From NCBI RefSeq assembly GCF_003334405.1, contig NZ_QOWM01000005.1: 64,000 nucleotides of DNA. The stretch is one strand, 5' to 3'. The notes under the pieces were generated by a model. That model ran no database searches and was not told the DNA's origin. It was given only the letters and a program-made list of their open reading frames with translations. The stretch is from Escherichia coli. GTDB lineage: Bacteria > Pseudomonadota > Gammaproteobacteria > Enterobacterales > Enterobacteriaceae. Within the stretch, counting starts at the first letter, position 1, and each line of letters starts with the position of its first letter. Shown here piece by piece: positions 28,680-29,079 of this stretch. Made by a program: the position numbers and the translations under genes.

Positions 28680-29079
28680 AGAAAATTCTTCCTTAAAGCA
28701 AATTTTGTTATTTTATTTAGCCAGATTGTTTTTGAGTTCTGTTTTCGGCTTTTATAATTACTGCAAGAAATAATTTTATATTTAGTGTGTTGTTTTTTAT
28801 CAGAATAAATAACGTCTTCTGATACGTTTAAAACGTCAGAAAGATAAAAATATCATGTGAATTAAAAAAAGAACAAGTAGAGCATTAACATTATCTTAAA
28901 TAATAAATAGAGGCAAAAAGATTATTTTCTTTTTGCGTTTCCTTTCAAATGAAAACGATCGTCGTCTAAAATCAGCAGTACCCCCGACAAACTCAGGGAT
29001 TTTGTGTATAATTGCGGCCTTTTTCGGCAATCTGCCGTTTTTTGGCGCTTTTGCCCTGCTGACTTTTGAGGAAATCCAC

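Follow-up and report, generated by a model that had tools for sequence, protein, structure and literature searches.

Escherichia coli crfC (also termed yjdA or rdcA; ORF 26451-28679, minus strand) and yjdM (also termed phnA; ORF from 29080, plus strand) are transcribed divergently from a long, AT-rich spacer, and the question raised by this locus is what the spacer contains: that is, whether it holds a gene or RNA of its own or solely serves its two neighbors. ORF calls, RefSeq annotation and base composition place the intergenic region at positions 28680-29079 of the window (the whole 64,000-nucleotide stretch of E. coli DNA analyzed here; MG1655 coordinate = 4355814 − window position), a length of 400 bp, exactly as claimed in a first-pass annotation made from the sequence alone. 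E. coli K-12 RefSeq records contain an identical 400 bp crfC-yjdM gap with nothing annotated inside it, and the spacer is single-copy and is found in 5414 of 5426 complete E. coli genomes. The A/T tracts and AT-richness that the first-pass annotation had pointed out are both present, and the latter is far beyond chance: GC content is 31% for the spacer overall and 23.6% for its first 250 bp, vs. 52% for the whole 64 kb window, and the 200 bp segment 28751-28950, with 22.5% GC, is the lowest among the ~6,400 sliding windows of the 64 kb. We propose that the spacer is, very probably, a compound back-to-back control region that provides two untranslated mRNA leaders and contains no gene of its own. 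The region is an ordinary one, is already partly characterized and presents no new kind of element; the literature already treats it in this way, through Reg-Seq for phnA and through H-NS repression for crfC.

A scan of species-representative genomes for YjdM yielded 80 loci, 21 of which have a CrfC homologue divergently upstream, with spacers mostly 402-656 bp, and up to 1182 bp (Cedecea), in length. The divergent crfC-yjdM layout and a long spacer (427-612 bp) are retained in 16 other Enterobacteriaceae, and an alignment of the window sequence with 16 orthologous spacers (17 sequences) shows conserved blocks with indel-rich, variable DNA between them. A simple sigma-70 weight matrix, applied at each position of all orthologues, identifies two promoters that share an alignment column in essentially all 17 sequences. 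The divergent promoters that had been presumed from the sequence alone thus find specific counterparts, TTGCCT-17-TAATGT for crfC and P2 and P1 for yjdM, each on the correct strand, with 17 bp spacing and at a conserved position (for P1, in Escherichia only).

The predicted crfC promoter occupies 28888-28916 on the minus strand (−35 element, 28916-28911; −10 element, 28893-28888) and has the best or near-best minus-strand score at one alignment column in 17 of 17 sequences. Elsewhere the promoter reads TTGCCA-17-TAAGGT or TTGCCA-17-TATGGT, and the 17 bp spacer is invariant though the flanks carry indels. The −10 element is TAATGT in the window vs. TAAGGT in other E. coli strains, and is weak in either form. 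From conservation and match to consensus, we infer a transcription start near 28880 ± 3. The crfC and P2 −35 elements are 68 bp apart, and the crfC promoter is ~200 bp ahead of the crfC start codon in the window and 320-340 bp ahead of it in other genera. Because the conserved crfC promoter lies upstream of the AT-rich two-thirds of the spacer, the AT-rich DNA is most likely not promoter DNA, but, instead, a transcribed crfC 5′ leader of ~200 nt and ~76% A+U (28680-28881, minus strand; extent set by the promoter position). The corresponding leader is 320-340 nt in other genera, and the leader in E. coli, and in Escherichia, is shorter by ~130-200 nt.

A minus-strand sigma-70 promoter ~200 bp upstream of crfC would transcribe this long AU-rich leader, and the leader DNA would be the kind of target that H-NS binds. 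H-NS has been reported to bind the crfC promoter region and to repress crfC (PMC6374313, citing Oshima 2006 and Shimada 2011), and the AT-rich segment, with 22.5-24% GC vs. 52%, has the AT content of an H-NS target; a scan of the spacer with a 10 bp H-NS motif was not discriminating. The spacer resembles H-NS-silenced, AT-rich divergent regions of the bgl, proU and adiA/melR type in its extreme AT content, its A/T tracts and its length, in the published binding of H-NS and release of crfC from repression in Δhns, and in the presence of an IS1 element in one natural isolate. It differs from them in that the predicted crfC promoter precedes the AT-rich part, so that this part would be leader, and silencing would be more like downstream or bridging repression. 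As a refinement of current descriptions, transcription of crfC/rdcA probably begins ~200 bp before the gene and passes through a leader prone to H-NS binding. In the isolate with the insertion, E. coli ET846, IS1 has inserted in the crfC leader at 28740-28748, which is 60-68 nt before the crfC ATG; a target-site duplication is present, and the insertion would part crfC from its predicted promoter.

Other elements have been proposed for, or are present near, the crfC promoter. PMC6374313 also refers, for crfC regulation, to DnaA boxes and to a suggested FliA site. A consensus DnaA box, TTATACACA (29003-29011, minus strand; pattern scan, 0 mismatches), overlaps the −10 element of yjdM promoter P2, and is Escherichia-specific, not being conserved in other genera. 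An upstream FliA (sigma-28) promoter for crfC was rejected, the best match to TAAAGTTT-N11-GCCGATAA in a motif scan having 6 mismatches; this agrees with the correction by Fitzgerald et al. 2014 (PMC4183435), according to which the prediction of an upstream FliA promoter was an error, the genuine FliA promoter being located within yjdA and driving yjcZ. A repeat search identified a perfect 9 bp AT-rich inverted repeat, GCAAAAAGA-N6-TCTTTTTGC (28913-28936), that overlaps the crfC −35 element, has a folding energy of −9.4 kcal/mol as RNA and has a terminator-like score on both strands; the repeat is Escherichia-specific and is altered in E. albertii. The portions available of the Adams 2021 3′-end tables and of the SMRT-Cappable-seq supplements contain no entry for crfC or yjdM.

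The part of the crfC leader nearest the gene is a conserved block, block A (28680-28775, minus strand; defined from alignments), that includes the Shine-Dalgarno (SD) sequence AAGGAAG (28694-28688) and has 92-99% identity within E. coli and 81% identity in E. albertii. Block A is strongly conserved, yet exhibits neither significant covariation nor a good minus-strand promoter. According to one hypothesis, the crfC leader mediates cis-acting translational control: a U-rich anti-SD segment would mask the SD until temperature, an sRNA or a protein opens the pairing. A candidate anti-SD segment (UUUCU..CAGUAA; 28758-28770, minus strand), identified by RNAalifold and pair counts, can pair with 28688-28702 (UUUGCU..AAGGAAG). 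In orthologues, the RNAalifold consensus joins an upstream UUUCC..ACGUAA to the ribosome-binding site, UUUGCGUUAAGGAAA, with 90% of cells paired across 16 genera; in E. coli a double change, C-G to A-U, preserves the helix and is the one compensatory event counted, and a re-paired variant occurs in Cedecea. Most minimum-energy folds, moreover, have the crfC SD in a paired state (z-scores negative in 15 of 16, mean −1.0). Nevertheless, the covariation is not significant (double changes in 2 pairs only, with 155 of 500 shuffles equal), the consensus fold energy is a tiny −0.8 kcal/mol, several orthologues favor other folds, and the conservation of block A could, instead, act at the DNA level. 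The single-sequence fold of the E. coli crfC leader is no better than those of dinucleotide shuffles (z = −0.8). The candidate pairing is like that of fourU-type RNA thermometers, in that a U-rich stretch can pair with the AAGGA(A/G) of the crfC ribosome-binding site; it is unlike them in being long-range (partners ~70 nt apart) and not a local hairpin, and in its non-significant covariation. The crfC leader may, through its conserved final 100 nt, also mask the crfC ribosome-binding site; we consider such masking unlikely.

The remainder of the predicted crfC leader, 28776-28881 (minus strand), is the most variable segment of the spacer, with 92-96% identity in E. coli and 71% identity in E. 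albertii. A repeat search identifies in this segment the Escherichia-specific inverted repeats TATCAGAA / TTCTGATA / TCAGAAAG, which were considered as alternative hairpins or as an operator; the repeats are not kept even among E. coli strains, and therefore were dismissed. Outside Escherichia, crfC leaders share a conserved block at alignment columns ~200-290 (e.g. loci L012, L021 and L022) that has been lost in Escherichia. This block comprises an invariant GATATATCCTG and a small hairpin (CCUCUC...GGGUGGG), and contains a possible ORF of 7-10 codons (M-K/T-I-Y-P...) in which not even third codon positions vary.

E. albertii offers a natural comparison of the two halves of the spacer. In this species crfC-rdcB is deleted (window positions 26135-28621, comprising most of both genes, are absent) and the spacer is retained. 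The crfC half of the E. albertii spacer is decayed, with 71-81% identity and indels, and the crfC promoter has a 1 bp deletion in its −35 element, whereas the yjdM half is intact. We conclude that the left part of the spacer serves crfC and that the right part serves yjdM. On one contig (USCO01000113.1, labelled uncultured Clostridiales), a glycosyltransferase-like, non-E. coli region is joined at 28937 to E. coli yjdM DNA (99% identical); the contig is probably an assembly chimera.

The yjdM half contains two promoters on the plus strand: P1, TTCAAA-17-TAAAAT (28944-28972), identified from sequence and Reg-Seq peaks and not conserved outside Escherichia, and P2, CCGACA-17-TATAAT (28984-29012), identified from conservation and Reg-Seq peaks, for which the predicted start is 29017-29020. 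P2 is kept in nearly all aligned sequences and across genera such as Escherichia, Citrobacter, Enterobacter, Leclercia, Kluyvera, Pluralibacter and Cedecea, and is kept also where crfC is absent from the locus (Kluyvera, Pseudocitrobacter), with similarity to E. coli starting at ~28972-28984. P2 is 100% identical among all E. coli compared; P2 and the yjdM 5′ UTR together are 100% identical among four E. coli phylogroup representatives and a divergent lineage (93% identical overall), and 98% identical in E. albertii. The yjdM SD sequence, GAGGA (29068-29072, plus strand), located 7 nt before the ATG at 29080, is likewise largely conserved (G65 invariant; G62, A63 and G64 at least 90%; GAAGA in one CM-aligned sequence).

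The same DNA has been analyzed by Reg-Seq (Ireland et al. 2020, PMC7567609), in which the 'phnA' construct comprises 160 bp corresponding to window positions 28863-29022, and in which the phnA start was assumed to be MG1655 4326836, corresponding to window position 28978. The design table of that study contains no evidence or source note for this start. The published architecture consists of a repressor site and an RNAP site, the 'repressor' site being TTTCAAATGAAAAC (28942-28956, plus strand, mapped here from the supplements; −36 to −22 in Reg-Seq numbering), assigned to YciT by mass spectrometry. This site overlaps both the −35 element of P1 and a minus-strand TTGAAA, and, like P1, is present only in Escherichia in the 17-sequence alignment. 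The source data contain information peaks on the P1 −10 element (construct positions 104, 105, 107 and 109) and on the P2 −35 element (121-122) and −10 element (145, 146 and 149). Since peaks fall on elements of both P1 and P2, both promoters appear to be active in the Reg-Seq assay. In our reading of the energy matrix, mutations at 'repressor' positions 82-83 can be ones that improve the P1 −35 element, which would explain part of the signal. The architecture proposed here thus differs from the published one in that the construct contains two promoters, and in that the conserved promoter is P2 and not the start-centered P1; the refinement is that P2, rather than the published Reg-Seq start, is the conserved yjdM promoter. 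In the differential-expression tables of the YciT ChIP-exo study (PMC8464067), yjdM is, as judged from sheet positions, outside the sheet of 46 genes differentially expressed upon yciT deletion, the yjdM row falling in a later sheet of the supplement, and no support for YciT regulation of yjdM is provided by these tables. Overall, yjdM would be driven by conserved P2, to which Escherichia would add an upstream P1 overlapping a site assigned to the DeoR-type repressor YciT.

The leader that would be transcribed from P2 contains two small hairpins. HP1 (CGGCA-AUC-UGCCG; 29025-29037, plus strand) has a 5 bp stem with 4 G-C pairs, a 3 nt loop and a folding energy of −5.3 kcal/mol, and is followed by U6, the whole (29025-29043) having the GC-rich stem plus U-tract of a terminator-like element. 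HP2 (29044-29055, plus strand; GGC-GCUUUU-GCC in E. coli, −2.8 kcal/mol) is present elsewhere as stems of 4-7 bp with other sequences. In 22 distinct orthologues, 89% of HP1 cells are paired, and HP1 exhibits compensatory changes, G-C to A-U in Leclercia and C-G to U-A in Enterobacter sp. ENT03. For HP2, comparison of orthologues reveals at least 10 stem sequences at one place (e.g. GCUGG/CCAGC, GGUGGA/UCCACC, GACCGG/CCGGUC and GGCGG/CCGCC), with double changes in 4 of 5 modelled pairs. For the two-hairpin structure as a whole, 79% of cells are paired vs. 73.7% in shuffles (a value reached by 0 of 500 shuffles), and the covariation score is 0.151 vs. 0.108 in shuffles (reached by 6 of 500). 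Independently of the alignment, 22 of 22 orthologous yjdM leaders fold better than their own shuffles (mean z = −1.7). Taken singly, neither of the two possible E. coli yjdM leaders folds more stably than dinucleotide shuffles (z = −1.2 and −0.15); the E. coli hairpins are weak, and a nested alternative fold of the E. coli leader is slightly more stable (−11.9 vs. −9.6 kcal/mol). A DNA palindrome over the P2 start, TTGCCG-N7-CGGCAA, was considered as an operator and was rejected: changes in its downstream arm are followed within HP1 but not by its upstream arm. The comparison of orthologues indicates that the 60 nt yjdM leader contains two small hairpins conserved via compensatory changes in ~20 genera and under selection.

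The first-pass annotation had reported neither a small ORF nor a structured RNA in the spacer, and had proposed sRNA prediction and conservation analysis as a check. The absence of an ORF and of an Rfam family stands (see below); the absence of structure does not, strictly. The annotation named a conserved structured RNA as what would refute it, and the two yjdM-leader hairpins, with their covariation, technically qualify, though they are minor leader elements and not an sRNA.

The hairpins could act as a 5′ stabilizer, a weak attenuator or a binding module. HP1 with its U-tract, followed by HP2, would most likely have an effect on mRNA stability or cause modest early termination. The hairpins are like ompA-type 5′ stem-loops and leader terminators in being small, GC-rich stem-loops 10-40 nt from the start, one of them followed by a U-tract, with compensatory changes; they are unlike them in that the predicted 5′ end is ~6-8 nt away from HP1, whose stem has only 5 bp. 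A stronger version of the termination hypothesis is that the yjdM leader is a regulated attenuator, in which HP1 and the U-tract end most transcripts ~25 nt in unless the hairpin is blocked. Consistent with this hypothesis, a hairpin and then a U-run are conserved just after P2 in many genera, HP1 has compensatory changes, and the Pluralibacter hairpin is strong (9 bp predicted fold, −16.6 kcal/mol, with a U6 run 5 nt further downstream). However, E. coli HP1 has just 5 bp (−5.3 kcal/mol), the leader has no conserved antiterminator pairing (the upstream arm, TTGCCG, exhibiting no covariation on inspection) and no leader peptide, and the available portion of the Adams 2021 tables lists no yjdM 3′ end. 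We therefore regard a regulated attenuator as quite improbable, and favor a leader hairpin pair with an effect on mRNA stability or modest early termination.

The hypothesis that the spacer contains no gene of its own also requires that it encode neither a protein nor a separate RNA. Both-strand scans, with orthologues, identify no ORF of at least 8 codons within the spacer that is preceded by an SD and no ORF of at least 20 aa that is conserved, which upholds the earlier claim that coding ORFs are lacking; such ORFs as the spacer has vary from genus to genus, and an in-frame extension upstream of yjdM includes P2 and is not conserved. Rfam 15 yields no relevant match in the spacer even at E ≤ 10, none in 11 orthologous loci of other genera and none ahead of those yjdM homologues that were searched in Firmicutes and in other non-enterobacterial genomes.

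A separate RNA has been proposed for this spacer. An sRNA prediction in Shigella flexneri (PMC4782007) lists Ssr28 in the yjdA/phnA spacer as an RT-PCR-positive, 328 nt RNA on the phnA strand. Transcription of such an RNA could start from P1 or from a perfect plus-strand TATAAT at 28753-28758, a possible internal or antisense promoter inside block A, directed toward yjdM, and could end at the 28913-28936 inverted repeat or at HP1 and U6 (29025-29043). The location of the TATAAT is compatible with the predicted transcript, its alignment column is conserved (TATAAT or TATGAT in most genera), and terminator-like hairpins exist in the spacer. Nevertheless, RT-PCR alone cannot tell an sRNA from a long yjdM 5′ UTR or read-through; no Rfam family matches and nothing is annotated in MG1655 RefSeq; the TATAAT lacks a conserved −35 element, and the AT hairpin occurs only in Escherichia; conservation across the spacer is lowest in what would be the middle of this RNA; and the portion available of the Adams 2021 3′-end tables has no yjdM or crfC entry. 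An independent plus-strand sRNA is, we judge, very unlikely.

Least likely of all, to a degree that we consider nearly negligible, is the hypothesis that a gene once located between crfC and yjdM decayed and left the spacer behind. Such a gene is present in Cedecea, where a 238-aa regulator-like gene with an HTH and a WCX domain lies between crfC and yjdM (2926-3639 in loci L030 and L032), and a recognizable, degraded fragment of it is present in Klebsiella sp. BIGb0407 (3447-3622 in locus L027). Yet tblastn with the Cedecea protein yields no match in the E. coli spacer and a marginal one (E = 0.02) in one other genus, and the conserved blocks of the spacer are accounted for by promoters and leaders. 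A Cedecea HTH-WCX pseudogene remnant in the E. coli spacer was rejected on this absence of translated similarity.

A more ambitious extension of the two-leader hypothesis is that both halves of the spacer are undescribed cis-regulatory leaders: an RBS-masking crfC/rdcA leader and, in the yjdM leader, a two-hairpin attenuator or protein- or Hfq-binding module. We hold this extension to be doubtful. If it were true, the crfC/rdcA leader would place the RdcA-RdcB input to the DgcE c-di-GMP/biofilm switch under post-transcriptional control. The present results are of use for work on the regulation of RdcA/RdcB (c-di-GMP signaling, biofilm input) or of the poorly understood YjdM, and offer little beyond annotation.

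The only strong Rfam matches nearby are downstream of yjdM: four tandem naRNA4/REP325 units (29433-29809), with an exact spacing of 100 bp, in the gap that separates yjdM from yjdN. This gap measures 457 bp here vs. 657 bp in K-12 records, for which six units are described, and the shorter gap corresponds to two fewer repeats in this strain.
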